Positions 2,250-46,791 of a stretch of DNA of 64,000 bases are shown here, one piece after another. The first letter of the stretch is position 1. Each line of letters opens with the position of its first letter. The notes beneath the pieces are model-generated. The model was given only the letters and a program-made list of their open reading frames with translations, made no database searches and was not told the origin of the DNA. Origin of the DNA: an uncultured Candidatus Saccharibacteria bacterium (GTDB lineage: Bacteria; Patescibacteriota; WWE3; UBA101185; UBA10185); assembly GCA_964385105.1 (NCBI GenBank), contig CAYLMU010000002.1:122583-186582 (forward strand), read 5' to 3'. Both the position numbers and the translations under genes were made by a program.

Positions 2250-3254
2250 TTATTCGTAAACTATTCCCCCACCATATAATTTTCTAATATCATCAATATT
2301 ATATTTTTGCATTACTAGCCTGTCTAAGCCAATTCCGAACGCATAACCGGTATAAACATCAGGGTCGATTCCACTCATTTGCAATGTGTTGTAGTGAATC
2401 ATGCCACTACCCAAAACCTCAATCCACCCTCTTTCTTTACAAACCGAACAACCTGTACCATTACAAAATTTGCATTTCATATCAACTCCTAAGCCCGGCG
2501 AAACTTCAGGGTAATACTTGTATCTAAATCTCACTTCTGTATCGTTGCCATATAAAAATTTGTGAAAGTCCTCCAAAACAGACATTAAATTTTGAATTGT
2601 AATGCCTTTATCTACTACGACCCCCTGATATTGATGAAAAAAAGCGGCATTTGTAACACTTGTGGTTTCGTTTCTATAAACCTTACCTGAAACAACAACT
2701 CTTATAGGAGGTGAATATTCTTCAAGTACACGTGCCTCAACAGAAGAAGTATGTGTTCTTAATAAAATATCGTCACTGTACACAAAAAGAGAGTCTTGCA
2801 AGTCGGTTGCGGGGTGGCCCTCGGGTAAATTTAAACGTCTAAAATTGTATTCTGCTGTTTCTATCTCAGGACCTTCTGCAATTGAAAATCCATGATACCT
2901 AAAAAACTCATTCATTTCTCTTATTACTTGCGTTGTAGGATGCAAATAGCCGGTTTTAACAGGTTGTTGTGGGATTGTCGGGTCAATTTGTATGTTTGTA
3001 GCTAAATGCAGGTTATATGCGGTTTTAGTGTCTTCCAAGGCATCTTTTAGTTCATCCTGCAGCTCATTAATTAATGGACCATATATCTTTTTCTCCTCAG
3101 TTGTTAGTTTTGGAATTTCCTTAACAATTTCGGTTACAAGCCCATGTGTTTTTGAAAAATATTTTAAATACAGCTCGTCAAACTGTCCGGTTTTAGTTGT
3201 ATTTTGCAAATCTTTTTCAAATCTGTTTTTAATATCTTTTAGTACTTCGTCCAT
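2250..3254 (-). CDS. pheS: phenylalanine--tRNA ligase alpha subunit
   Basis: 334 aa; class II aaRS core motifs (FRYHGF...EGPE, HPATDLQDS), 4-nt gap to pheT. Confidence 0.85.
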   Translation of the reverse strand: MDEVLKDIKNRFEKDLQNTTKTGQFDELYLKYFSKTHGLVTEIVKEIPKLTTEEKKIYGPLINELQDELKDALEDTKTAYNLHLATNIQIDPTIPQQPVKTGYLHPTTQVIREMNEFFRYHGFSIAEGPEIETAEYNFRRLNLPEGHPATDLQDSLFVYSDDILLRTHTSSVEARVLEEYSPPIRVVVSGKVYRNETTSVTNAAFFHQYQGVVVDKGITIQNLMSVLEDFHKFLYGNDTEVRFRYKYYPEVSPGLGVDMKCKFCNGTGCSVCKERGWIEVLGSGMIHYNTLQMSGIDPDVYTGYAFGIGLDRLVMQKYNIDDIRKLYGGGIVYE

Positions 3255-3367
3255 TATCCTTTAGTTTAACAGGAAATTAGTTAAATTTTAATAATTTGGT
3301 ATATGATATGGTAAAGTAGCTGTTTATTAAACTCTTTTAATGAAGGGTATATTGTGTTTTTCTACTT

Positions 3368-3730
3368 TTATTTTTTGGATGATTTCTCTTTTACAGCCTC
3401 GACAATCTGTTTAAAGGCTTCAGTGTCATGAATTGCAATTTCTGACAACATTTTTCTATTTAGCTCTATATTTGAATCTTTCAATCCTTTAATAAATCGG
3501 CTGTAATTTATATCAAATGGAGTTAATGCTGCAGAAATTCTAATAATCCAAAGTTTTCTAATATCTCTTTTTCTTCTTTTCCTACCTGCAAATTGATGCT
3601 CGGTAGCTCTCATTGCAGCTTCTTTAGCTCTTCTAAGCAGTTTGCTTCTGCTTAATCTATAGCCTTTTGTTTGTGTTAATATTTTATTTCTTCTTTGTGT
3701 GCCTCTTGGGCCTCTTTTTACTCTTGTCAT
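3368..3730 (-). CDS. rplT: 50S ribosomal protein L20
   Basis: 120 aa, N-terminus MTRVKRG...RRNKIL..TKGYR typical of L20; position in infC-rpmI-rplT operon. Confidence 0.9.
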   Translation of the reverse strand: MTRVKRGPRGTQRRNKILTQTKGYRLSRSKLLRRAKEAAMRATEHQFAGRKRRKRDIRKLWIIRISAALTPFDINYSRFIKGLKDSNIELNRKMLSEIAIHDTEAFKQIVEAVKEKSSKK

Positions 3731-3731
3731 T

Positions 3732-3938
3732 TTATTTTACATTTTTGGCATGTTTGCCAAGCATTTTCTTAAACTGTTTAATATAACCTTTTGTGTCCAT
3801 TTCTTCAAGACCGGTTTTTCTATGAAACTTATTAGCATTCCATTTTCTTTTCAGATGCCCGGTTCGATTTTGTTTTTTTAAAACTTTACCGCTTTTAGTT
3901 ATTTTTATTCTTTTTAATAATGTTTTTCTTGTTTTCAT
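3732..3938 (-). CDS. rpmI: 50S ribosomal protein L35
   Basis: 68-aa highly basic protein (MKTRKTLLKRIKITKSGKV...), between infC and rplT. Confidence 0.85.
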   Translation of the reverse strand: MKTRKTLLKRIKITKSGKVLKKQNRTGHLKRKWNANKFHRKTGLEEMDTKGYIKQFKKMLGKHAKNVK

Positions 3939-3939
3939 A

Positions 3940-4475
3940 TTATTTTTTTGTAAGCAAAACCGTTAGACTACTACCTACCCTTTTTACTCCGCCTTCGCTT
4001 TTTGCTATATCTTCAAGTTCTTTTATAAATTTATTTACCTTTTCAATGCTCAATTCCGGATAAGCGTTCTCACGCCCTTTCATACGAAGTGTGATTTTTA
4101 CACTGTTTCCATCTTCAATAAATTCTCTTGCCCGTTCTGCTTTGATTTTAATTGCATTTTCATCTATTGAAGCACTTAATCTAACCTCTTTCATTTCGCT
4201 GCTTTTTGATGCTGCTTTTGAATGTGCTTTTTTCTTTTCCTGCTCGTACAAAAACTTATTAAAATCTAAGATTTTTGCAACAGGCGGGTTTGCGCTCTCT
4301 GTTATTACCACTAAGTCAAGTTCTTTATCATATGCTCTTTGTAAAGCTTCATTAGTCTTTATTATTCCTACGTTTTCACCCTCATCCGTAATTAACCGTA
4401 CCTCGGGATATCTTATCTTTTCGTTTATTTTGTAATATTTATTTGCTATACATTCCTCCGTTAACCATGTTAAGT
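3940..4475 (-). CDS. infC: translation initiation factor IF-3; start is non-ATG (candidate ATT at 4475 or ATA at 4439)
   Basis: ORF-track ORF 3940-4311 begins at GTG; manual in-frame extension upstream reads ...KINEKIRYPEVRLITDEGENVGIIKTNEALQRAYDKELDLVVIT, the IF3 N-domain, with no ATG before the in-frame TGA at 4488-4490; IF3 classically uses AUU. Confidence 0.7.
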
Positions 4476-4512
4476 TACCATAAATACAGGCTTTTGGTCA
4501 ATATTATGCTGG

Positions 4513-6309
4513 TTATAGCTCAAGTGATTTCCCTGTTATTTTATCTTTAACTCGATTTATTATCTCGTCAATCGGCAATGCACCTAAATTTTCACCTGTT
4601 CTTAGTCTCACACTTGCAGTGTTATTTTCTACTTCCCTATCGCCCACAATGAGCATATAAGGGATTTTTTGTTCTTGTGCTTCACGGATTTTTGATTGCA
4701 TGGTTGAATCTTTGTCATTCACTTCAGTACGTATACCGCTACTTTCAAATGTACTTTTTAACCTATATACATAATCCACGTGATTTTCAGAAATTGGAAT
4801 TAGTTTTACTTGCACAGGTGAAAGCCATACGGGCAATGCTCCTTTTGTACTTTCAAGCAAATAAGCAATAAATCTATGATATGAGCCCAATATTGCACGG
4901 TGAATCATAACAGGAGTTTTTTCATGACCGTCTTGTGCAATATATGTTAATCCAAATCTTTTTGGCATGGCAAAATCAATTTGAACCGTTCCAAGTTGTC
5001 TGTCGTTTCCAAGTGCATCTTTAAACATAATATCTATTTTTGGACCATAGAGGGCTGCTTCACCTTCCATAACTTTACCCCCCAAACCAAGCGTGTCGTT
5101 AACCTCAAGCAGTATTTTTTGTGCATTTTCCCAGTCGCTATCATTTCCTATATACTTTTCAGGTGTGTCTGGGTCTCTAAATGACAACGAAACCCAGTGT
5201 TCACCCCACATGCCAAAAACCTTATAAAAATTTTCCATGACTTTTATTAGTTTTATAGCTTCATCCTTTACTTGTTCGGGAGTGCAAAATGTATGGCCAT
5301 CATCTATTTCAAATGATCTTGCTCTGTTTAAACCAACCATAGATCCCGGTTTTTCGTCACGATGTTGCTGTGTGGATTCAACATAAGCAATCGGCAAGTC
5401 GCGGTAACTTCTTTGTCTTGATGAGTAAATTTGTGTGTGATGCGGGCAATTTACAGGTTTTAACACAAATTCTTCGTCATAATGACTAATTACCTTAAAT
5501 AACTCATCTTTGAACTTTTCTGCGTGCCCCGAAATTTCGTAAAGATTAATTTTTGCCATGTGAGGTATATCAACTTCTTTTGCCCCAAATTCCTTGCTCA
5601 CTCCCAGCAAATAATTTCTAAGCTCATTCTTTATAATTGTCCCGTTTGGTGTGTACAGTACTAGCCCTTTACCTACAAGTTCAGAAGTCGTAAAAATGTC
5701 TAAAGTATTATTTAGCTTTCTATGATCACGTTCAGCTTGTTCTTCAATAAATTTTAGATATTGAGCAAGATTTTCTTTCGAATCAAAAGCAGTCCCATAA
5801 ATTCTTTGCAGCATCTTGTTTTTTTCGTCGCCTTTGTAATACGCCCCTGCTACGCTAAGCAATTTAAAAGCTTTTATTTCACCGGTGCTGTTAACATGTG
5901 GACCCGCACATAAGTCAAGATCGTAATATTCGTCACCTTCATTTCCAATGCTATATAAAGTAATTTTCTCATTTCTGGATTCAATTTCATTTATAGTGTC
6001 GAGTTTGTAAGGATTGTTTTTAAAAATTTCTCTTGCTTCATCAAAAGTGATTTCATAACATGCTATAGGTAAGTCAGCATCTATAATTTCCTGCATTTTA
6101 GCCTCTATTTTTGCAAAATCTTCCGGGCTAATACTTTCATCTAAATCAAAATCAAAATAAAAGCCATTTTCAATAGGCGGTCCCATAACTTTTTTCAAAT
6201 TCGGATATAATTTCTGCATCGCGGTATGAAGCACATGTTCAGCGCTATGTCTTAAGGGCATTAATGGATCATTTTTAAGTTTGTCTATAACTTTTTGTTT
6301 TTCTGACAT
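4513..6309 (-). CDS. thrS: threonine--tRNA ligase (598 aa, N-terminal TGS-type domain apparently absent)
   Basis: RHSAEHVLHTAMQKLYP start of second additional domain; class II core HRDEKPGSMVGLNRARSFEIDDGHTFC; anticodon-binding C-terminus; upstream of infC. Confidence 0.85.
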   Translation of the reverse strand: MSEKQKVIDKLKNDPLMPLRHSAEHVLHTAMQKLYPNLKKVMGPPIENGFYFDFDLDESISPEDFAKIEAKMQEIIDADLPIACYEITFDEAREIFKNNPYKLDTINEIESRNEKITLYSIGNEGDEYYDLDLCAGPHVNSTGEIKAFKLLSVAGAYYKGDEKNKMLQRIYGTAFDSKENLAQYLKFIEEQAERDHRKLNNTLDIFTTSELVGKGLVLYTPNGTIIKNELRNYLLGVSKEFGAKEVDIPHMAKINLYEISGHAEKFKDELFKVISHYDEEFVLKPVNCPHHTQIYSSRQRSYRDLPIAYVESTQQHRDEKPGSMVGLNRARSFEIDDGHTFCTPEQVKDEAIKLIKVMENFYKVFGMWGEHWVSLSFRDPDTPEKYIGNDSDWENAQKILLEVNDTLGLGGKVMEGEAALYGPKIDIMFKDALGNDRQLGTVQIDFAMPKRFGLTYIAQDGHEKTPVMIHRAILGSYHRFIAYLLESTKGALPVWLSPVQVKLIPISENHVDYVYRLKSTFESSGIRTEVNDKDSTMQSKIREAQEQKIPYMLIVGDREVENNTASVRLRTGENLGALPIDEIINRVKDKITGKSLEL

Positions 6310-9765: not shown

Positions 9766-11214
9766 ATGCAAAATCTAATAAATAAATATAAACAATATCA
9801 TCCAGTGCCGGATGAAGAGTTAATAAAAAAGGCCTATGATTTGGCACAACTGGCTTATTCTGATATTAAACGTTTAAACGGCGAAAACTGGCTTAATCAT
9901 GCTCTTGAAGTTGCACATGTTGTAACAGACTTAAAAATGGACACAGAAAGCATTTGTGCCGCCTTACTTCATGACAGTTATCAGTTTGGATTGACACCAA
10001 AAGAAATTGAAGACGAATTAGGTTCTGATGTTAGAGAACTTGTAGACAATATTTATAGTATGAGGTCGATTTCTACAAGAAGAACCCATGAGTTTACTGA
10101 TGAGCAATATGCTGAATATTTAAGACGTGTAATTTTGTCTATGGGAAGAGATTTAAGAGCAGTTGTAATAAGACTTGCAGATAAACTTAGTAACCTTCAC
10201 ACAGCTGATGTTCTTGATGAAAAACTAAAAAAAGAAGTTATAAATAGTGCTTTTACAGTATATGCACCGCTTGCAGATTTAGCAGGTGTTTATGAGCTAA
10301 AATGGCAGATTGAAGATGTGGCGTTTAAACATAAAAGTCCAAATGACTATAAAAAGTATAGACAAGTAATATTTGATCATATATTTGCTAAAGATATTCC
10401 TTTAAAAAAAGTAATAAATAGTTTGTACGATTTGTTATTAGAAAATGGTGTGAATGTTGTTGATATATCAGGAAGACAAAAAGCAACATACTCCTTTTAT
10501 AAAAAGGTGAATAAAAGGGTAAATAAATTGCAGTTATCTGAAGATATGGCTTTAGAGCATATTTACGACAAAGTAGCTTTTAGGGTAATAGTTGAATCGG
10601 TAGAAGATTGCTATGCAGCTTTAGACGTACTTCATCAAAATTACAATTATATCGATGAAGAATTTGATGATTATATAGCAGAACCCAAAACTAACGGGTA
10701 TAGAAGTATTCAAACCACTATAGAGCTTGAACCTTCTTATTTTTCGGAAATTCAGATTAAAACTAAAGAAATGCACGAATATAATGAATTTGGTCCAGCC
10801 AGTCATGTTTTTTATAAATTACATGGTTCGGATACTGCAATATCTACAGAAAAAATTCGCATGCTAAAGCAATTATTGCAATGGAGAGATGATATATTAG
10901 AAGAAAAGTCCCAGGTGTCAGTAAAAGATATTGCTCAGACTATTCTTGTTTTTACGCCAAAAGGAGAAGTTATTGAGTTACCTGTTGGGTCAACTCCTAT
11001 AGACTTTGCTTATGCAATTCACACCGGTATCGGAAATAAGGCCGTTCGAGCACTTGTGGACGGTAAATTACGCGGCTTAGACTACAAACTAAAAAACGGT
11101 GAGGTTGTTAAAATTGTGACCGACCCAAGAAGAACACATCCAAGCATAGACTGGTTGGGATTTGTTAAGACTAAAATCGCAAAAACCTATATTAAGAAAA
11201 ATGCCAAAAGATAA
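9766..11214 (+). CDS. (p)ppGpp synthetase/hydrolase, RelA/SpoT homolog (HD + synthetase + TGS)
   Basis: HD motif HALEVAHVV..LLHD, synthetase region YRSIQTTIEL..EIQIKTKEMHE, C-terminal TGS-like VFTPKGEVIELPVGSTPIDFAYAIH. Confidence 0.8.
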   Translation: MQNLINKYKQYHPVPDEELIKKAYDLAQLAYSDIKRLNGENWLNHALEVAHVVTDLKMDTESICAALLHDSYQFGLTPKEIEDELGSDVRELVDNIYSMRSISTRRTHEFTDEQYAEYLRRVILSMGRDLRAVVIRLADKLSNLHTADVLDEKLKKEVINSAFTVYAPLADLAGVYELKWQIEDVAFKHKSPNDYKKYRQVIFDHIFAKDIPLKKVINSLYDLLLENGVNVVDISGRQKATYSFYKKVNKRVNKLQLSEDMALEHIYDKVAFRVIVESVEDCYAALDVLHQNYNYIDEEFDDYIAEPKTNGYRSIQTTIELEPSYFSEIQIKTKEMHEYNEFGPASHVFYKLHGSDTAISTEKIRMLKQLLQWRDDILEEKSQVSVKDIAQTILVFTPKGEVIELPVGSTPIDFAYAIHTGIGNKAVRALVDGKLRGLDYKLKNGEVVKIVTDPRRTHPSIDWLGFVKTKIAKTYIKKNAKR

Positions 11215-16492: not shown

Positions 16493-16864
16493 TTAGCTTA
16501 GGTTTTGTTCGACCAAATCAACTAATGCGTCAATATCAAAAGGTTTTTTTAAGTATGAGTTGGCTTTTGCATCCTGATATTTTTTATCAAGATGCATATC
16601 CGCCGACATCAAAATAACGGGAATTTTTTGAAAATCTTCGTCATTTTTAAGATTTCTGCATACATCTATTCCGCTTTCACCTGATAGTAATATATCAAGC
16701 AAAATTAAATCAGGTTTTGTAATACTTAATATTTGCATTAGTTTTTTACTGTTTTCAAAAATTCGTGTTTCATACCCCGCTTCTTTAAGCACAATGTCTA
16801 CTGCATCCAAAATTGGTTTGTCATCATCAACTATCCAGACTTTTTTTGTTTTACTAATTGGCAT
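16493..16864 (-). CDS. single-domain (CheY-like) response regulator
   Basis: VWIVDDD...DLILLDILL receiver motifs; overlaps upstream kinase stop (operon). Confidence 0.75.
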   Translation of the reverse strand: MPISKTKKVWIVDDDKPILDAVDIVLKEAGYETRIFENSKKLMQILSITKPDLILLDILLSGESGIDVCRNLKNDEDFQKIPVILMSADMHLDKKYQDAKANSYLKKPFDIDALVDLVEQNLS

Positions 16865-18566
16865 TGGTTAATGTAAACGAAAACGTGGAGCCTTCCCCTT
16901 GGACGCTTTCAACCCAAATGTCCTCATTATGACGTTTTAAAATTTCATACGATATATATAATCCAATACCAAGCCCTGCATACGTTGATTGATCCTGGCC
17001 TTCTACACGATAAAACTTTTGAAATAACAATTTTTGATGCTCGGGAGATATTCCTATTCCATGGTCAATAACACTGATAATTGTTTTATTGTTGTTTTTT
17101 GATTGTGTGATTTTAACGATAATATCTTTATTAGTTCTAGAATATTTTATTGCATTGTTAACCAAATTATTCAAAACCTGGCCTATTCTGTATTTGTCAC
17201 ACTCGACCATAATATTGGTATTACCTTCTACCCTAATATCATAATCTTCAGAAAGTGTTTTTATGTCAGAAATGGTCTCATCTACAATTTCATAAAGTTT
17301 TATTGGTTGTTTATTAAGTTCCAGTTTTCCTAATTGAATTTTTGATACATCAAGCAAGTCTTCAACCAAATGATTTAGTCTATCTACTTGATTATTTATT
17401 CTTCTTAAGTAATTTTTGGCTTTTAAGTCTTTAGTTTTGCTAAAATGTTTTTCAAGTAATTGTGTAAATGCTTTAACACTCGTTAGTGGGGTTTTTAGTT
17501 CATGGCTTGCTATACTAATAAATTCATCTTTGCGCTTTTCTTCTACTTTATTTTTTGTAATATCAGTCATTACATTTACTGCATATAAAACATTGTTGCT
17601 TGTGTCTCTAATGGGTCTTGCTTTAACAATAGTCCAAAATTCCTGTTTTGTTTTTGTGTCAAAATATCTTAATATTTTTTCTGTTTTTTCAGCGCCTTGA
17701 ATCACTTTTCTCCCCGGTAAGTCAGAAATTGTAACCGGTTTGCCGGATTCATCATATATTTCAAACCTTTTAATTTTAGATGAAAGCTCAATTGTATCTG
17801 CATTTACCATTTCTTGTGCATCCGAAAATCCACATAGACGTGCTGCAACATCGTTTGCAAATACAATTTTTCCTTGGGTATTTTGTACCGTTATGCCATC
17901 AGCGATGCTTTGTAAAATAATTTCAAGTTGTGTGTTTGATCTTTTAAGCTCATCTTCAATTCTTTTTCTTTCATCAATCTCATCTTTTGCTTGTTTATAT
18001 AATTTGGCGTTGCGAATTGCCTGTGCAGCTTTAGTAGCAAATACTTGCGCCAGCTCATAATCTTCGTCAGTGTACTGTACTGGGGCTTCACGTGCAAAGC
18101 TTATGGCACCTATAGATTCATTGTCTACAATAATGGGTAAAATCATCACACTGCCTAAATTTAATTTTAAAATCATTTCGTAATGCTTTTTATCCTTGGC
18201 AGCTGATTTAAGCATCTCATCCTTAATGTCAGGAAAAAATATTCCCTTTTTTGTTTTCATCACTTGATAGGTACCGCCATCCTGGTTCGTATCGGGGTAC
18301 ATTTTTCGAAGTTTATTAAGAAGTTCAATGTTTTGTTTTTCTGAATGCACTAAGGCAATTTCTTCCAAACTTCCACTCTCATCAAGTACATTAATCGCAC
18401 ACCAATCTGCCAAATATGGAACCATCAAATCTGCTATATTTTGCAAAGTATCCTTGTAGTCTAAAGTGGATAATAGCAATTTGCCTGCTTCCATTAAGTA
18501 TTCAGCTGTAGAATGAAAGTCCCTAATGTGAGTATCTTTCACCTTCTTAAGGTTTTTACCCGCCAC
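16854..18566 (-). CDS. GAF/PAS sensor histidine kinase
   Basis: N-terminal GAF-like, central PAS-like, H-box ISIASHELKTPLTSV, C-terminal HATPase (NLVNNAIKYS...GLGIGLYIS). Confidence 0.8.
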   Translation of the reverse strand: MAGKNLKKVKDTHIRDFHSTAEYLMEAGKLLLSTLDYKDTLQNIADLMVPYLADWCAINVLDESGSLEEIALVHSEKQNIELLNKLRKMYPDTNQDGGTYQVMKTKKGIFFPDIKDEMLKSAAKDKKHYEMILKLNLGSVMILPIIVDNESIGAISFAREAPVQYTDEDYELAQVFATKAAQAIRNAKLYKQAKDEIDERKRIEDELKRSNTQLEIILQSIADGITVQNTQGKIVFANDVAARLCGFSDAQEMVNADTIELSSKIKRFEIYDESGKPVTISDLPGRKVIQGAEKTEKILRYFDTKTKQEFWTIVKARPIRDTSNNVLYAVNVMTDITKNKVEEKRKDEFISIASHELKTPLTSVKAFTQLLEKHFSKTKDLKAKNYLRRINNQVDRLNHLVEDLLDVSKIQLGKLELNKQPIKLYEIVDETISDIKTLSEDYDIRVEGNTNIMVECDKYRIGQVLNNLVNNAIKYSRTNKDIIVKITQSKNNNKTIISVIDHGIGISPEHQKLLFQKFYRVEGQDQSTYAGLGIGLYISYEILKRHNEDIWVESVQGEGSTFSFTLTNAN

Positions 18567-21621: not shown

Positions 21622-23166
21622 TTATACTATTGTTACTTCTCCTTTTTGTGGTTTTACGCCTCTTGTCGGTAACGTAAACCAAAAAGTGGTTCCTTTGCCC
21701 TCTTCGCTTTCAAACCATATTACTCCATCCATCAGTTCAACCAGTGATTTTGCTAAATATAAACCTAAACCCGTTCCATCAGGAATCATTTTTAATGCGT
21801 TTTCAGCCCTAAAAAATTTATTGAATATATCTTGTTTTTGGTTCTCTGGAATACCTATACCCTCATCTTTAATCTCTGAAATTATTTGCTCGTCTTGTTT
21901 TGATAATTTTATTTCAACCTTTTTACCTTCAGGTGAGTATTTGATGGCATTTCCGATTAAATTTAAATAAATCTCTCTAACAAGCTTAGGGTCTATATTT
22001 ATTGAAGGAATTTCTTCAGAAATCACACTAATCTCAACATTTTTATCTTGCGCCTTAACTTTTAGCTCTTTTACAATATCCTCAATCATAGCTTTAATAT
22101 CAGTATTTTTAGGTTCAACAAGTATTCGCCCCGATTCTATACGTGAAACATTTAACAAACCTCCAACAAGGCCAATTAATCGTGAGTTTGAAGTATAAAT
22201 GTCGGTAATATATTCTCGCTGCTTTTCGTTCAAATTACCAAAATCATCGCCCAATATAGCTTCAAGACCCCATTTCATTGAAGTCAAAGGTGTTCTTAAC
22301 TGATGTGAGGCAAGTGAAATAAATTCTGTTTTCATGCGGTCTACCTCTTTTGCCAGGGTAACATCTCGCTCCATAACAACAAAAAATATAACTTCGGAAT
22401 CTTTGTTTAAAATAGGTGAAATATTAATTTCGGCAATATACTCTTCTCCGTTCTTTCGTTTGTTTTTAACGTCTCCTTTATAATTTTGCTTATTTTTCTT
22501 AAGTTCGTTCCAAAATTCATTTGTCATTAGTTCAGGCCAAAATTTATGAGTTTCTTTATCAAGCATTTCTTCCGCCTCGTATCCTGTTATTAACTCACCG
22601 GCATTGTTACTGTATAAAATCACCCCGTTGTGGTCGGTAATTAAAATATGGTCTGAAGCTTTATCTACCGCCAACTTATACTTTTTTAAATCCTGTGCAA
22701 TAACCTCAGAAATTTTCTTTTCTTTTTCAACTTCTTTTAAAACCTCAACCGTTGCTTCTTCCTGAACTTTAAGTTTTTTATCTTTTTCTTCAATTTCTTT
22801 TGTTAAATTTTCAACAGACTTTTTCTTTTCTAAATCTGCCTGTTTTAATAACATTGTTTGCATTTGAACAGCTTTTGCTAATGGAAGTAATTCTTTTGGT
22901 GTGGACTTGCTTGGTTTAAAAGTTTTGTGTTCTTTCTCAGCTACTTTAAGCTCAGAATATAATTCATTGATTGGTTTAAAAATCATAGAAGAGCTCAAAA
23001 GCGACGCTGCTAATACAATAGTAATTAAAGCCAAAACAATTAAAATAAGAAAAGGCAGAAAAAGCACGTGGTTATAAGGAATAAACAAGATTAACAACGT
23101 GAAAAGTATTACAAATGCAATATTGGGCAATAAGATTGTTAAAAATAATCGAATTTTAATATTCAT
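21622..23166 (-). CDS. membrane sensor histidine kinase (2 TM, PAS, HisKA, HATPase)
   Basis: TM helices, coiled coil, PAS-like, H-box ISLASHQLRTPLTSM, ATPase GNAIKYS...GTGLGLYLAK. Confidence 0.8.
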   Translation of the reverse strand: MNIKIRLFLTILLPNIAFVILFTLLILFIPYNHVLFLPFLILIVLALITIVLAASLLSSSMIFKPINELYSELKVAEKEHKTFKPSKSTPKELLPLAKAVQMQTMLLKQADLEKKKSVENLTKEIEEKDKKLKVQEEATVEVLKEVEKEKKISEVIAQDLKKYKLAVDKASDHILITDHNGVILYSNNAGELITGYEAEEMLDKETHKFWPELMTNEFWNELKKNKQNYKGDVKNKRKNGEEYIAEINISPILNKDSEVIFFVVMERDVTLAKEVDRMKTEFISLASHQLRTPLTSMKWGLEAILGDDFGNLNEKQREYITDIYTSNSRLIGLVGGLLNVSRIESGRILVEPKNTDIKAMIEDIVKELKVKAQDKNVEISVISEEIPSINIDPKLVREIYLNLIGNAIKYSPEGKKVEIKLSKQDEQIISEIKDEGIGIPENQKQDIFNKFFRAENALKMIPDGTGLGLYLAKSLVELMDGVIWFESEEGKGTTFWFTLPTRGVKPQKGEVTIV

Positions 23167-35901: not shown

Positions 35902-38900
35902 TTAATAAATTAAAGAAACTGTTGGAAACTCAAATTCTTTTGCAATCTCAACAAAAAAATCCGATTTAACTTTTAATTTTTTTGTTTTATCTAAATCACT
36001 TAAATATCCCTTATATGCAATGTTAAGAGCAGCCTGAACATCGGCATCACTAATGTTTTGACAGTCTATGAAGGGGCATATAAATAAGGCACTATTACCA
36101 CGATTTTCGTAAAATGTTTCAAAATTCAAATTATTAATTTTTAGATATTCCGCATCTTTGGGTGGACGCATAAATTCATATACGCATGTCTTCAATTTTG
36201 ATCCCGGTATATTTGGACCTATAATATCTTTGGAAAAAAACAGTAATTTCTGACCGTTTATATCTGCCTTATAAATATTAGAAGAATCAACATATTTAGA
36301 TGTTTTATATTCTCTTGATGTATCAATATACTTTAAGGGTGAACGTCTGCATTTAGAGCATGTTTGACTTGTTCCATATGCACTTATGTGATTTCCAACT
36401 AATTGGTTTTTGCCCCAGACTTTTTCGCGCTCAGATTTATCAGCATCATTTCTGCCAATGACATCAGTTTTTTTGATTGAGTGATAAATTTTTGCTACTC
36501 TATTACCTGCAGTCTCAAAGGCCGATATCTCATGCTCGTATATTGGTTTTGCATCATATTTCAAAACTAAATCATGAATACGATTTCTTATACCATTTTG
36601 TGCAGATTTTCTTATTCTGCTTAATGCTGAATTAGGAACTGTGAATGTTCCGGTTATTTGCTGATTTTTTATGATATCAATATGATCTCTTATTTTTCTA
36701 ATTTCAGCACTGTAAATAAAACCAGTGTCTACTGTAGTTAAAGCACCTTCAGCAGATAATACATAATATGCCACACCATATTCACCTATATCAAGTCCTA
36801 AATATTTTTTTGCTATTTCAATATTTTTATTAATTTGCGGTTTCTCATTTGGGTTAATATTAAATGGTTGATTAAAATATATCGATTGACTTATCTCAAT
36901 TAGCTCAATTTTACCAGTAAGAAAGTTACAATCAGCATTGTATGTTATTTCTTTAACAATTTGAGGTTCGTCTCTTGTTATATGAACCTTACCCTTTCTT
37001 TTTTGGTCACTCATGAACCATTCAAGGAATTGTCGCTGGTACCTTGAAGTTTTTATTTGGAAAAGATTTATTAACTGTGAATTCTCATCTATTTTGAATT
37101 TATTTGGACTCTTATCAACAGTCTTTTTTACGTTGTATATTTCAAGTTCTGTGAATTGGTTTTTCGTGTTTAGATTGGGAAAACCAACAAAGAAAGCATA
37201 TTTGGTCTCATCTTTGTTTGAAGAGTAATATATGGGGAATTTCTTTTCAGAATTCATTACCTGTGCAACTTCTCGAATATTAAATGTTTTCCTACTAGTC
37301 TGGTTAAAAATACCTCTAACTTCAGAAAATAGAATTGAATTTAATATATAAAAGACTGCATTCTTATCTAATTTGCCGTTTGTTAGAAAAAGAATATTTT
37401 TTAAATGATCAAAATATTTATGAGTAATATTCAATTCAATAAAGTCAAAATTATGTAAGTGCACAAACCATGATGTGGTAAGTTTTTTCATTTCGATATA
37501 ATCAATTCGCTGCGCTGAGTTTAAGTTTTTCCAATCTTTAGTATCATCTAACTCATTGTATAGTTTTTCTAGTTCTGTGTTGAAGTCGCTAATAACCATT
37601 AATATATTTAATATTTTTCTATTTTCTCTTTTTGAATATTTTGATTTATATATTATTTCATATTTTTTGTTCGGAATTTTACCGCAGTATCTTACAAGAA
37701 TTTTCTCCACTTTGTTTTTATACATATTTGTATTAAGTTTATTGTGTAACCTTGAAAGTTTTTCTAATTGGTATATGAAGTAATCACTTTCAACTAATTC
37801 CATTTTTTGTGATGTGTTCATGATTTCGTTTTTTATTATCTCTACAATCTTAAAAGCTTCATCACATCTAATTGCAAAGTTGATATACTTTGAGTTTAAT
37901 TCTTTTTTTGATTCACCATAAAACTTTGGCAAGTATTGGACTTTTTTAAATAGGTTTGGCAAGATCTTATCAATGGTTATCTCTGTTAACACTATTTGTA
38001 AGTGCTCATCTTGATTAATTTTTTCTGTATTATCTTTTTTGTTACCTTTATTCTTTTTTCCTATTTCTTTAGCAAGATTATACTTTTTATTATAGAAAAG
38101 TTTGCCCGACTGGAAATGTCTATTAGTTAATGATTTGATGTTTCCCAGTAATTCAACATAGGTGTTAAATACATCTATGTTAGTTGTATTTTCCGCGGCT
38201 TCTAGTGCAATTAATATTAAAGACTCTAAATCCTTTAAATCACTTTTTTGTACTTCCTCTAGTAGCTCCTGCAATTCGCTTTTTTGTTTAATTATTTGTT
38301 CATGAGATTTAGCTAAGTAATTATTGTAGTTTGAATACCAAGATTTCAGTTTACCCGAGAAAACACTTCTATATTCAGCCCATGTAGTTGCTAACATTGG
38401 TTGTGGCAGTAATTTGGCTCTATTAGATAGAAAGTCCAATCTCTTTTGTAATTCAGCTTCATTACCGACCCATAAGTTTCCAGTAGATAACATTTCATCA
38501 AAGTACTTTTGAGTGTTGCTATTTCTTAAATCATTAATTACTGCGTTAAAGTAGTTTGATAATGCATTTCCATTACTACCGATTCCCAGAAGGTTTTCTG
38601 TATCGTTATTTAAAGCAGTTATCCTACTAATGGCATCAAGTGGCGTCAGCCCTTCAACTAAATTCAAAGAAGGATATATATAAAAAGTAGTACTATATGA
38701 TATATTTTCCGAGTTTATTTCTGTATAGCCAAATGCTTTAGCCAAAATTTCATTCTGTTCTATTTTAGATTTACCAATTATTGAATGTGCTGTATTTTCA
38801 ATTATATTAGTAATCTCTTTGTCATTTTTAAAATCGTCTTTAACAAATTCAAGTAATTGTTTTTTTATTGATTTAGGTGTGCTTGTAGTTTTAAATACAC

Positions 38901-39303
38901 TCTTTAGAAACACTTTTTTAATAAAGCTTACTTCTATTAACTTATTGCGCAAGTCTTCCGGAATTGTGTTAAATGACAGAACATAGGGGTTTGGAATGTT
39001 AGATAAGTCATGTATTAGAGCAAACATTTCCGCAGTGCTCTGCTGAAAAATTACACCAGCACGTAAACTGTCAAGCCAAAAATCTAATAATGAGTAAACT
39101 TTTTGATGTGATAAGTATTGATCTATATTACCTATGCCATCTAAATAAATTGAATCGTGATGAATAGCACCTGATAATGAATTGAAAAGTTCTTGATCTT
39201 GTGTTCTAAGTGGGTATTTTATAGTTCTCTTTATCTTACCACCGACATATTCTGCTCTTTTTGCATGTAGTGTGTATCCTGTTTTACCTAAATATTTTTT
39301 CAT
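35902..39303 (-). CDS. type V CRISPR effector, Cas12 family (Cas12d/CasY-like), 1133 aa
   Basis: RuvC-I KYLGLDIGEYGVAYYVL, RuvC-II PIYEHEISAFETAGNR, zinc ribbon TCSKC...CPFIDC, RuvC-III NISDADVQAALNIAYKGY; N-terminal 800 aa without recognisable domains; abuts the CRISPR array; cas1 lies on the array's other side. Confidence 0.8.
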   Translation of the reverse strand: MKKYLGKTGYTLHAKRAEYVGGKIKRTIKYPLRTQDQELFNSLSGAIHHDSIYLDGIGNIDQYLSHQKVYSLLDFWLDSLRAGVIFQQSTAEMFALIHDLSNIPNPYVLSFNTIPEDLRNKLIEVSFIKKVFLKSVFKTTSTPKSIKKQLLEFVKDDFKNDKEITNIIENTAHSIIGKSKIEQNEILAKAFGYTEINSENISYSTTFYIYPSLNLVEGLTPLDAISRITALNNDTENLLGIGSNGNALSNYFNAVINDLRNSNTQKYFDEMLSTGNLWVGNEAELQKRLDFLSNRAKLLPQPMLATTWAEYRSVFSGKLKSWYSNYNNYLAKSHEQIIKQKSELQELLEEVQKSDLKDLESLILIALEAAENTTNIDVFNTYVELLGNIKSLTNRHFQSGKLFYNKKYNLAKEIGKKNKGNKKDNTEKINQDEHLQIVLTEITIDKILPNLFKKVQYLPKFYGESKKELNSKYINFAIRCDEAFKIVEIIKNEIMNTSQKMELVESDYFIYQLEKLSRLHNKLNTNMYKNKVEKILVRYCGKIPNKKYEIIYKSKYSKRENRKILNILMVISDFNTELEKLYNELDDTKDWKNLNSAQRIDYIEMKKLTTSWFVHLHNFDFIELNITHKYFDHLKNILFLTNGKLDKNAVFYILNSILFSEVRGIFNQTSRKTFNIREVAQVMNSEKKFPIYYSSNKDETKYAFFVGFPNLNTKNQFTELEIYNVKKTVDKSPNKFKIDENSQLINLFQIKTSRYQRQFLEWFMSDQKRKGKVHITRDEPQIVKEITYNADCNFLTGKIELIEISQSIYFNQPFNINPNEKPQINKNIEIAKKYLGLDIGEYGVAYYVLSAEGALTTVDTGFIYSAEIRKIRDHIDIIKNQQITGTFTVPNSALSRIRKSAQNGIRNRIHDLVLKYDAKPIYEHEISAFETAGNRVAKIYHSIKKTDVIGRNDADKSEREKVWGKNQLVGNHISAYGTSQTCSKCRRSPLKYIDTSREYKTSKYVDSSNIYKADINGQKLLFFSKDIIGPNIPGSKLKTCVYEFMRPPKDAEYLKINNLNFETFYENRGNSALFICPFIDCQNISDADVQAALNIAYKGYLSDLDKTKKLKVKSDFFVEIAKEFEFPTVSLIY

Positions 39304-39399: not shown

Positions 39400-40040
39400 T
39401 GTTTAATTTCACTTTTCCCCTACAATTCGGGGCTTGATAAATGCCTCTTTGCCTTTAATCCCCTACAATTCGGGGACTTACATGTTCATCATATGCCTTT
39501 AATCCCCTACAATTCGGGGTGAGACTTGTATCATACTGCCTTTAATCCCCTACAATTCGGGGTACCTCTTTTTGACCCATGCCTTTAATCCCCTACAATT
39601 CGGGGTTGCCCTTGTCAGACGGTAGCCTTTAATCCCCTACAATTCGGGGTATCAGGGTTTGGCTTGTAGCCTTTAATCCCCTACAATTCGGGGAAAATGG
39701 ATAAGGATATAGCCTTTAATCCCCTACAATTCGGGGAGACTTTAGACAGTGCTGAGCCTTTAATCCCCTACAATTCGGGGTGTAGCTCCACAGGGTATTG
39801 CCTTTAATCCCCTACAATTCGGGGTATGGAAAACATGGTCATGCCTTTAATCCCCTACAATTCGGGGAAATCCTACGTTGTTTGACGCCTTTAATCCCCT
39901 ACAATTCGGGGCTAGGGTTAGTTCAGTTTGCCTTTAATCCCCTACAATTCGGGGCACAGTTACCGAGAGTAAGCCTTTAATCCCCTACAATTCGGGGTAA
40001 TGGGTGTTCGTTTTGGCCTTTAATCCCCTACAATTCGGGG
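39400..40040. CRISPR. CRISPR array: 14 identical 25-nt repeats (GCCTTTAATCCCCTACAATTCGGGG) plus a degenerate repeat, 18-19-nt spacers
   Basis: repeats start at 39451, 39495, 39538, 39581, 39625, 39669, 39712, 39756, 39800, 39843, 39887, 39930, 39973 and 40016; degenerate copy with a 9-nt insertion at about 39400-39432; all spacers unique; repeat has CCCC/GGGG hairpin at its 3' end; AT-rich flank 40041-40143. Confidence 0.95.
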
Positions 40041-40143
40041 AGTTTACCCGATATATGCTTTATTTAAAGTACAAATTAATATAATATATATATAAATTAA
40101 CCTCATTAATTGGTTAATTACGCGTGATTATAGCATATTTCTT

Positions 40144-41121
40144 ATGCAGATACCTAAAGATCCTGCTTGGATACCATATTTACAGACAGCAACACTAATA
40201 GGAAACGACAAAGTTAATATTAAATACAATGACGGTGAAACTATAATTCATCCATCTAGTACATTGTCTCTTTTAATTTATGGAGATTGCAATGATTTGC
40301 CAATAGAAGTAATTGAAGAATTTGGTAGATATGGTGTTCCTATTATCTTTCATAAAAGAAATATCTCAAAAAATATATGGATAAGTAATGGTCCTCGGGC
40401 TGATAAAAACGACACACTAACTAAGCAAATATTACTTAGGAATGACTTGAGAAGAAAAACATATATATCAAGAGTACTGATTTATAATAAATTTAAATAT
40501 TTTGATGAGTTATTTAATATAAGTATACCTAAGTTAAGTGGAATGACAGTAAGCCAAATAAGAATCACAGAGGCTAAGGTTTCTAGAGTTTATTGGAGAA
40601 GTTATTATAATGGACTTGAACAACCTTCTTGGACTAGAAGGTCAAATAATCCCGTTTCTTTTGCTTTGGATGCATGTTCAAAATTTATTGCAGGGATAAT
40701 TCTAAGATGGATAAGCTATCACCACATGTCACCATATCACGGATTCTTACATATACCTACTGATTATCCAAGTTTAGTATATGATCTTATGGAACCGTAT
40801 AGATACATTAGTGATCTGGCTGTAGCAAAAGCTTATATTGAAAGCAAAACTCAAGACAAAGAAAAGCTTACGGCAATGTCAATTTCTAATTTAAAAGACG
40901 AATTAAATAAAGAAATATATTGTATTCAAACAAGACAATTGCTTAGAAGACAGCAGCTATTGCATGGCATATGTTTAAGTCTACGGGCATACTTATTAGG
41001 TGAAGGTAAAAGATTTATTGTTCCAACAGAAGGTGAAACAAGAAAGGGTAGACGAATTAAAACTAACTTTGTAATCCCAGGCAAGAGTGCAGGTTACACT
41101 AAATTAGTTTTAGGCAGCTGA
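40144..41121 (+). CDS. cas1: CRISPR-associated endonuclease Cas1
   Basis: 325 aa; HGFLH and SLVYDLMEPYRYI blocks; adjacent to the array. Confidence 0.8.
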   Translation: MQIPKDPAWIPYLQTATLIGNDKVNIKYNDGETIIHPSSTLSLLIYGDCNDLPIEVIEEFGRYGVPIIFHKRNISKNIWISNGPRADKNDTLTKQILLRNDLRRKTYISRVLIYNKFKYFDELFNISIPKLSGMTVSQIRITEAKVSRVYWRSYYNGLEQPSWTRRSNNPVSFALDACSKFIAGIILRWISYHHMSPYHGFLHIPTDYPSLVYDLMEPYRYISDLAVAKAYIESKTQDKEKLTAMSISNLKDELNKEIYCIQTRQLLRRQQLLHGICLSLRAYLLGEGKRFIVPTEGETRKGRRIKTNFVIPGKSAGYTKLVLGS

Positions 41122-41221: not shown

Positions 41222-41299
41222 TGGTCGGGGTGGCAGGACTCGAACCTGCGGCCTCACGGTCCCAAACCGCGCACTCTAGCCAACTGAGCTACACCCCGC
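41222..41299 (-). tRNA. tRNA-Pro (anticodon TGG)
   Basis: reverse complement GCGGGGTGTAGCTCAGTTGGCTAGAGTGCGCGGTTTGGGACCGTGAGG..GGTTCGAGTCCTGCCACCCCGACCA. Confidence 0.8.
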
Positions 41300-44114: not shown

Positions 44115-44190
44115 GCACCTGTAGCTCAGAGGATAGAGCAGTTCCCTTCTAAGGAAAAGGTCGTAGGTTCGACTCCTACCAGGTGCGCCA
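44115..44190 (+). tRNA. tRNA-Arg (anticodon TCT)
   Basis: GCACCTGTAGCTCAGAGGATAGAGCA..CTTCTAA anticodon loop..GTAGGTTCGACTCCTACCAGGTGCGCCA; 76 nt. Confidence 0.8.
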
Positions 44191-44207
44191 TAAATATTGG
44201 CTACAAG

Positions 44208-44294
44208 GCCCGGGTGGCGGAATGGTATACGCGCCAGACTTAAAATCTGGTGGGAGAATATCCCTTGTGGGTTCGAGTCCCACCCTGGGCACCA
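44208..44294 (+). tRNA. tRNA-Leu (anticodon TAA), long variable arm
   Basis: GCCCGGGTGGCGGAATGGTA..CCAGACTTAAAATCTGG..GTGGGTTCGAGTCCCACCCTGGGCACCA; 87 nt. Confidence 0.8.
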
Positions 44295-46717: not shown

Positions 46718-46791
46718 TGGAGCGGGATACGGGAGTCGAACCCGTTTCTTCACCTTGGAAGGGTGATGTTGAGCCGTTCAACTAATCCCGC
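46718..46791 (-). tRNA. tRNA-Gly (anticodon TCC)
   Basis: reverse complement GCGGGATTAGTTGAACGGCTCAACATCACCCTTCCAAGGTGAAG..GGGTTCGACTCCCGTATCCCGCTCCA. Confidence 0.8.

Follow-up and report, generated by a model that had tools for sequence, protein, structure and literature searches.

An array of repeats separated by spacers of 18-19 nt raises two questions: whether it marks a CRISPR system of a new kind, and from which strand its guide RNAs would be made. We addressed both within the 64-kb stretch of DNA that contains the array (the window). In our reading, to which we assign a probability of about 0.92, the array belongs to a complete chromosomal type V-D system comprising cas1, leader, array, scoutRNA and cas12d, and represents a divergent member of that type rather than a new kind of system. 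Type V-D CasY was reportedly described in Burstein 2017 and Harrington 2020, and the known Cas12d examples are from bacteria of the Candidate Phyla Radiation.

The array and its neighbouring cas genes

An exact-string search located 14 identical copies of the 25-nt repeat GCCTTTAATCCCCTACAATTCGGGG on the + strand, with starts at 39451, 39495 and onward to 40016 and an end at 40040; no further copy was found on either strand in the rest of the 64-kb window. The array has a period of 43 or 44 nt, and the 13 spacers between perfect repeats are 18 nt (n = 7) or 19 nt (n = 6) long, so the count of identical repeats and the spacer lengths given by a first-pass annotation of this DNA are confirmed by exact search. 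These 13 spacers are all distinct, with a pairwise ungapped identity of at most 50%, which removes the concern that they might prove near-identical to one another. A 14th spacer of 18 nt (39433-39450) separates the perfect repeat at 39451 from a degenerate copy. As a whole, the array (39433-40040, - strand) combines 14 perfect repeats of 25 nt, which read CCCCGAATTGTAGGGGATTAAAGGC in the crRNA sense, with 14 spacers of 18-19 nt, all unique. Tandem Repeats Finder and a generic repeat finder each recovered it independently, in agreement with the earlier call, and fourteen exact 25-mers at fixed spacing cannot have arisen by chance.

The array is flanked by a gene for a 1133-aa protein (35902-39303, - strand) and by cas1 (40144-41121, + strand). 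The 1133-aa protein is the effector, encoded by cas12d (casY): it matches the NCBIfam Cas12d/CasY equivalog model NF033951 with 789 bits (cut-off 250) across profile positions 1-1180 of 1180, while its match to the Cas12c model NF033950 is confined to the RuvC region and, at 61.5 bits, stays far below the cut-off of 250. The RuvC residues D838, E930 and D1088, which make up the Cas12d triad, are invariant in a 13-member alignment, as are the zinc-finger cysteines C982/C985/C1076/C1081. Like other Cas12d proteins, the effector carries one RuvC-like nuclease on its C-terminal side, with a zinc-finger (TNB/Nuc) insert. D838 aligns with the RuvC-I motif of Cas12c2 (IDLGERG), and the RuvC positions of the effector correspond to D827/E913 of KbCas12d, mutation of which inactivates that enzyme (bioRxiv 10.1101/2023.12.12.571249). 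The Pfam TNB model matches the effector with 24.6 bits, slightly below its cut-off. The N-terminus fits the family consensus (G9 Y10 H13 R16), indicating that the start codon at 39303 is right. The solved structures nearest to the effector are those of Cas12c2 and Cas12c1 only; the PDB copy searched held no solved Cas12d structure, and Cas12c alone was matched there.

The effector is distant from its relatives. In a BLASTP search of 5.8 billion clusters it is 34% identical to its nearest relative (locus L002) and 24-29% identical to the rest; in a multiple alignment the identities are 25-36%. Besides the exact self-match there are 13 homologues, all of 1153-1284 aa. The exact protein and an identical 8.2-kb stretch are already public (NCBI; Logan SRR9016296). 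A scan of genome contigs with the single effector protein gave no match, and an alignment-based scan of genome contigs returned 31 loci. The homologue loci P0002, P0007, P0012 and P0008, together with the relatives from the genome scan, adjoin cas1 and short-spacer arrays. These relatives are mostly from Patescibacteria MAGs. Six loci (L007, L014, L019, L028, L030 and L033) bear the MAG labels Leptonemataceae, Gammaproteobacteria, Bdellovibrionales or Propionibacteriaceae, labels that reflect either binning error or the occurrence of Cas12d outside the Candidate Phyla Radiation. The locus L036 (Spechtbacteria, 3227-5001) has a third V-D gene order, in which cas1 separates array and scout from cas12d and every element is on the same strand.

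On the other side of the array, cas1 (325 aa) is oriented divergently from it and is the sole adaptation gene. Its product matches Pfam PF01867 (Cas_Cas1) with E = 2.6e-14, aligns to solved Cas1 structures with the catalytic motifs E (TEAK), GFLH and DLMEPYR present in comparison with 7cr6, and shows a full-length identity of 37-43% with the Cas1 proteins of more than 20 loci where cas1 neighbours cas12d. No member of the Cas2 or Cas4 families was found among ORFs of at least 80 aa between 29.8 and 47.3 kb, nor among ORFs of at least 30 aa in the gaps; the adaptation module is cas1 alone, without cas2 or cas4 within about 6-10 kb on either side in the 64-kb window. The proposal that this is a type V CRISPR system with Cas1 and without Cas2 is borne out by the effector, by the PF01867 match and by these ORF searches.

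The remainder of the window is ordinary bacterial chromosome (35% GC) carrying thrS, pheT, relA/spoT, histidine kinases, a PBP and tRNAs, and its housekeeping genes are divergent. The PheT homologue (279-2246, - strand, 655 aa) matches only profile positions 159-798 and scores 379.5 bits, slightly below the bacterial pheT cut-off of 402.65; an N-terminally shortened and divergent protein of this kind is in keeping with a reduced genome. The window also has a pair of paralogous PhoR/WalK-like sensor histidine kinases (16854-18566 and 21622-23166, both - strand), no more than 5 kb apart. The GC content of cas12d is 27-31%, compared with 35% for the window, and a tRNA-Pro gene (41222-41298) lies just beyond cas1; the low GC and the adjoining tRNA gene are compatible with horizontal acquisition of the locus. 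A pair of genes for tRNA-Arg(TCT) and tRNA-Leu(TAA) at 44115-44294 and one for tRNA-Gly(TCC) at 46718-46791 form a small tRNA cluster near the locus.

Strand, leader and spacer length

The orientation of the array had been left open, with the degenerate repeat at the 39.4-kb end and an AT-rich flank at the 40.04-kb end; comparison with the KbCas12d crRNA and with relatives now resolves it in favour of the - strand. The experimental KbCas12d crRNA is composed of cuccgaaaguaucggggauaaaggc followed by an 18-nt guide (supplement, bioRxiv 10.1101/2023.12.12.571249), and the - strand repeat of the window aligns with cuccgaaaguaucggggauaaaggc base for base, loop differences aside. Since the - strand repeat matches that of KbCas12d, the strand of cas12d carries the AAGGC-ending sense of the repeat in the relatives, the degenerate repeat would then lie downstream and the other flank is AT-rich, we assign the array to the - strand, from which it is predicted to be transcribed. 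On this strand, the repeat has its hairpin at the 5' end, and its AAGGC 3' end adjoins the spacer. The first-pass annotation had drawn a + strand crRNA in which a CCCC-N8-GGGG hairpin touches the spacer, a layout that is wrong for Cas12d.

By the same homology, the degenerate repeat is assigned to the trailer end of the array and the AT-rich flank at 40.04 kb to the leader. The predicted leader (40041-40143, - strand) is 103 nt long, has 21% GC and adjoins cas1; its position upstream of the first repeat, in the crRNA sense, follows from the orientation evidence. It contains an extended -10-like element TGCTATAAT at 40135-40127, identified as a consensus match only, and no promoter with both hexamers turned up on the - strand in a strict sigma-70 scan. 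A putative - strand promoter is accordingly placed in the leader by consensus, and the most recently acquired spacer should be the one at the 40015 end of the array.

The degenerate terminal repeat (39400-39432, - strand) is a fifteenth copy in which the 17-nt hairpin part, CCCCGAATTGTAGGGGA (39432-39416), is intact, 39400-39415 has diverged and the 3' part, including AAGGC, is lost. Loss of the 3' part of the terminal repeat is also seen in L002 (216-245), L003 (about 11158-11182), L010, L011, L016 and L026. The degenerate repeat is thus present where it was first noticed; the 9-nt insertion ascribed to it is one possible alignment, and the relatives show a simple loss of the last few bases.

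The spacer length had been regarded as anomalous. With an array finder applied to homologue contigs and to the 31 genome loci, we obtained arrays in 22 other Cas12d loci. In 21 of these 22, a 25-nt repeat is called that, read on the strand of cas12d, finishes with AAGGC; spacer lengths range from 17 to 19 nt, with 16 or 20 nt occurring rarely. In the exception (L014) the array is cut by the contig end and its repeat was under-called at 21 nt by the script. V-D loci as published combine cas1 and cas12d with an array whose repeats are 26 nt and whose spacers are 17-19 nt long (bioRxiv 10.1101/2023.12.12.571249). Types V-C and V-D are the systems without cas2, and V-C Cas1 integrates spacers alone into a 25-bp repeat, as set out in PMC6977970. 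The window array, with repeats of 25 nt and spacers of 18-19 nt, falls within the 25-26-nt repeats and 17-19-nt spacers that characterise the type. Short spacers are therefore not an anomaly; they are a defining, published trait of V-D and V-C systems (bioRxiv 10.1101/2023.12.12.571249; PMC6977970) and are shared by the 22 other Cas12d loci. As repeat length, repeat ends, spacer length and strand are all as in these relatives, the array is typical of the Cas12d family.

A candidate scoutRNA gene

Cas12d requires a short trans RNA, the scoutRNA (bioRxiv 10.1101/2023.12.12.571249; PMC7889808; PMC11127173). In KbCas12d scoutRNA1, an outer stem surrounds a small hairpin and an unpaired GCCUU that is complementary to the AAGGC of the repeat end (bioRxiv 10.1101/2023.12.12.571249). 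An element of the same architecture, the candidate scoutRNA core (39372-39326, - strand), occupies the space from the terminal repeat to the start of cas12d and has the sequence AAAGGGAG-UCC-CUAAUAGC-CUGU-GCUAUUAG-AAU-GCCUU-CUUCCUUC. Its outer stem is formed by AAGGGAG (39371-39365) and CUUCCUU (39333-39327), and its inner hairpin, CUAAUAGC-CUGU-GCUAUUAG (39361-39342), has 8 bp; the unpaired GCCUU (39338-39334) is the complement of the AAGGC with which each repeat ends on its 3' side. The 'conserved five nucleotides' of the scoutRNA in Harrington 2020 are said to be GCCUU. Segment 39372-39326 is probably a scoutRNA gene, a prediction made from its fold, its complementarity to the repeat and its conservation.

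The element is conserved in relatives. L002 has the same order as the window (array, degenerate repeat, scout element, cas12d), and its scout element is near-identical outside the hairpin; the hairpin itself differs by two double compensatory changes and by a single change from G-C to G-U. We searched with a strict descriptor (outer stem and inner hairpin each of at least 5 bp, GCCUU unpaired), which is passed by 2 of 106 GCCTT sites in the window, the candidate included, and by 6 of 314 sites in control loci. In all 11 relatives examined, GCCTT occurs in the same place and topology just downstream of the terminal repeat, and seven of these pass the strict descriptor. The scout element lies between array and cas12d in ten relatives (L002 included), and in L003 it lies downstream of an array that follows cas1. 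The V-D trailer-end repeat keeps its 5' hairpin and lacks AAGGC, so the last unit could not recruit a scout on its 3' side.

Other approaches to the element gave the following results. The folding energy of the candidate is no better than that of shuffled sequences (z = -1.0). A MAFFT alignment of scouts from distant loci did not bring them into register, and a covariance model based solely on the scouts of the window and of L002 recovered just L036 (E = 0.06), with L006 and L011 among the noise; since neither could unite the distant scouts, the fold-descriptor scan was relied on. Rfam searches (E <= 1 for the region, gathering score for the whole window) returned tRNAs only, and no scoutRNA or CRISPR repeat family. 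Neither the scout pattern nor the exact repeat had a match in the JGI metagenome contig collection; since the scout pattern is present in L002, the JGI contig of that locus is evidently missing from the collection, and negatives obtained there carry little weight. In the clade with CATCGAAGGTTAGGAAC...AAGGC repeats (L004, L005, L010, L018, L019 and L026), where the arrays lie downstream of cas1, the descriptor found no scout near the array, so the scoutRNA of the CATCGAAGGTTAGGAAC... clade must be elsewhere or differently shaped.

Competing readings, mechanism and place among type V systems

The search of spacers against viral data that had been proposed was run with seven spacers in IMG/VR, and only spacer 1 matched. 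This leader-proximal spacer, CAAAACGAACACCCATTA, has two exact 18-nt matches (L037 2123-2140, + strand; L038 12653-12670, - strand), whose 5' flanks, ..GAAG and ..GTAT, hold no TR PAM. No second spacer was found on either contig with up to 3 mismatches; one of the two contigs has 35% GC, like the host. Chance is expected to give roughly 1-2 matches per 18-mer, a rough figure that uses our own estimate of the size of the collection, and the two matches are probably due to chance. The seven spacers thus yielded no convincing protospacer in IMG/VR, and no spacer has a self-target in the window with up to 3 mismatches.

That the periodic sequence might be a protein-coding or other non-CRISPR tandem repeat can be given practically no credence. 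A 60-aa + strand ORF (39798-39980) does lie inside the array, and its translation alternates between PLIPYNSG and AFNPLQFG; the period of 43 or 44 nt is, however, not divisible by 3, so successive repeats fall in differing frames, and each of the six frames has 10-18 stops across the array. With the period and the stops, this ORF, which the first-pass annotation had taken for a repeat artefact, is formally excluded as a coding repeat; the segments between the repeats are mutually unrelated, and the flanking cas genes settle the matter. Assignment of the locus to type V-C (Cas12c) is slightly more credible and still very improbable. V-C systems also have short spacers, Cas1 without Cas2 and scoutRNA dependence, the nearest solved structures are those of Cas12c2 and Cas12c1, and there is the partial Cas12c NCBIfam match of 61.5 bits; yet that score is far under the cut-off and covers the RuvC region only, the Cas12d model matches end to end, and the database relatives carry Cas12d-type repeats ending in AAGGC.

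We also regard transcription of the array from the + strand as most unlikely, though less so than the V-C assignment. The hairpin would then lie directly 5' of the spacer in a Cas12a-like layout without a trans-acting RNA. In this sense the hairpin is indeed directly next to the spacer, and the region's only two sigma-70-like matches are + strand ones; both, however, fall within repeat-spacer units, and such matches are at least as common in shuffled sequences. The polarity of the KbCas12d crRNA, to which the - strand repeat aligns, is the opposite one; in all 22 relatives examined, the AAGGC-ending sense of the repeat is the one on the strand of cas12d; a + strand reading would put the degenerate repeat at the leader end, which is atypical; and a conserved GCCUU-bearing RNA element, complementary to the minus-sense repeat end, adjoins the array. 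The strongest of these rivals, itself improbable, is that the locus is a decayed or silent relic in which the array is unexpressed, or Cas12d or Cas1 inactive. Chance-level protospacer matches, the lack of self-targets and the failure to find the exact repeat in the JGI metagenome collection would all fit such a relic. It is opposed by the two full-length cas genes with intact catalytic residues, by the 100% identity of the 14 repeats, which points to recent turnover or homogenisation, and by the conservation of the scout under structural constraint.

With the locus read as an intact type V-D system, we propose the following mechanism, in which the ends of the crRNA and scoutRNA and the position of the promoter are predicted. 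By analogy with V-C, Cas1 alone would act as a small integrase and insert 18-19-bp spacers at the leader-proximal repeat near 40040. The array, oriented by homology, would be transcribed on the - strand from the leader (40041-40143) towards cas12d, and each crRNA unit would consist of a 5' repeat part (CCCCGAAUUGUAGGGGAUUAAAGGC) and, 3' of it, a guide of 18-19 nt. The scoutRNA would be made from the same strand; its candidate gene directly follows the terminal repeat and lies about 20 nt ahead of the cas12d start. As in published Cas12d work, its GCCUU may pair with the AAGGC that ends each perfect repeat, next to the guide, and Cas12d would bind the dual RNA. The transcript may be processed after Cas12d binding; Cas12c processing takes place at the RuvC site, downstream of the spacer (PMC6977970; PMC9723637). 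If the effector behaves like its family, its single RuvC site (D838/E930/D1088) would cut guide-matching dsDNA beside a 5'-TR-type PAM and may also cleave ssDNA collaterally. Published Cas12d PAMs are 5'-TA or 5'-TR (bioRxiv 10.1101/2023.12.12.571249; PMC7889808; PMC11127173); because the effector is only 24-34% identical to others, its PAM and processing may differ from those of KbCas12d and CasY15.

The window protein belongs to the same effector family (NCBIfam equivalog) as KbCas12d/CasY.1 and CasY15 of type V-D, and is similar in size to the product of the 3378-bp KbCas12d gene. The locus shares with V-D systems an adaptation module of Cas1 only, repeats of 25-26 nt, spacers of 17-19 nt, a repeat with a 5' hairpin and a 3' AAGGC, and, in the form of the candidate, a scoutRNA with an unpaired GCCUU inside the outer stem. 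It differs in that its effector is highly divergent, the nearest relative being 34% identical, and in the place of the scout, which lies here downstream of the array, in the array-to-cas12d gap, as is common in relatives, whereas the KbCas12d scout is described as upstream of the array (bioRxiv 10.1101/2023.12.12.571249). Type V-C Cas12c systems resemble the locus in having Cas1 without Cas2, a repeat of roughly 25 bp as the integration target and short spacers (PMC6977970; PMC9723637), as well as in their scoutRNA dependence and a RuvC domain homologous to that of the window effector; unlike them, the window effector fails the Cas12c model (61.5 vs 250 bits), and only 5 nt of complementarity are evident where the Cas12c scout/tracr forms three anti-repeat duplexes (PMC9723637; PMC6977970). 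With type V-A Cas12a the locus has in common a single RuvC effector, a short repeat hairpin and a crRNA with the repeat 5' and the guide 3'. Cas12a systems have repeats of about 36 nt whose hairpin adjoins the guide, much longer spacers, in the 28-40-nt range given as usual by the first-pass annotation, no need of a trans RNA, and Cas1, Cas2 and Cas4. In the window, by contrast, the hairpin is distal to the guide, and it is the docking site for the trans RNA that adjoins the guide.

We raise as a tentative and rather doubtful idea that, in a deep-branching sublineage represented by the window and one JGI contig, array, scoutRNA and cas12d form a single transcription unit, with the scoutRNA cut from an array trailer that is at the same time the cas12d 5' UTR. 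If so, production of guide, cofactor and effector would be mechanically coupled and possibly autoregulated by Cas12d RNA processing, an arrangement not previously described for V-D.

Given that the spacer length is as expected for the Cas12d family, the locus leaves the picture of CRISPR function unchanged. Type V-D systems are uncommon, and guides as short as theirs attract interest as a means of targeting DNA with high specificity. To them the locus adds a complete compact example, with an 1133-aa effector, Cas1, an array and a candidate scoutRNA; as an example at only 34% identity to its nearest known relative, it is useful for defining the conserved core of Cas12d, of its scoutRNA and of its Cas1-only integrase.
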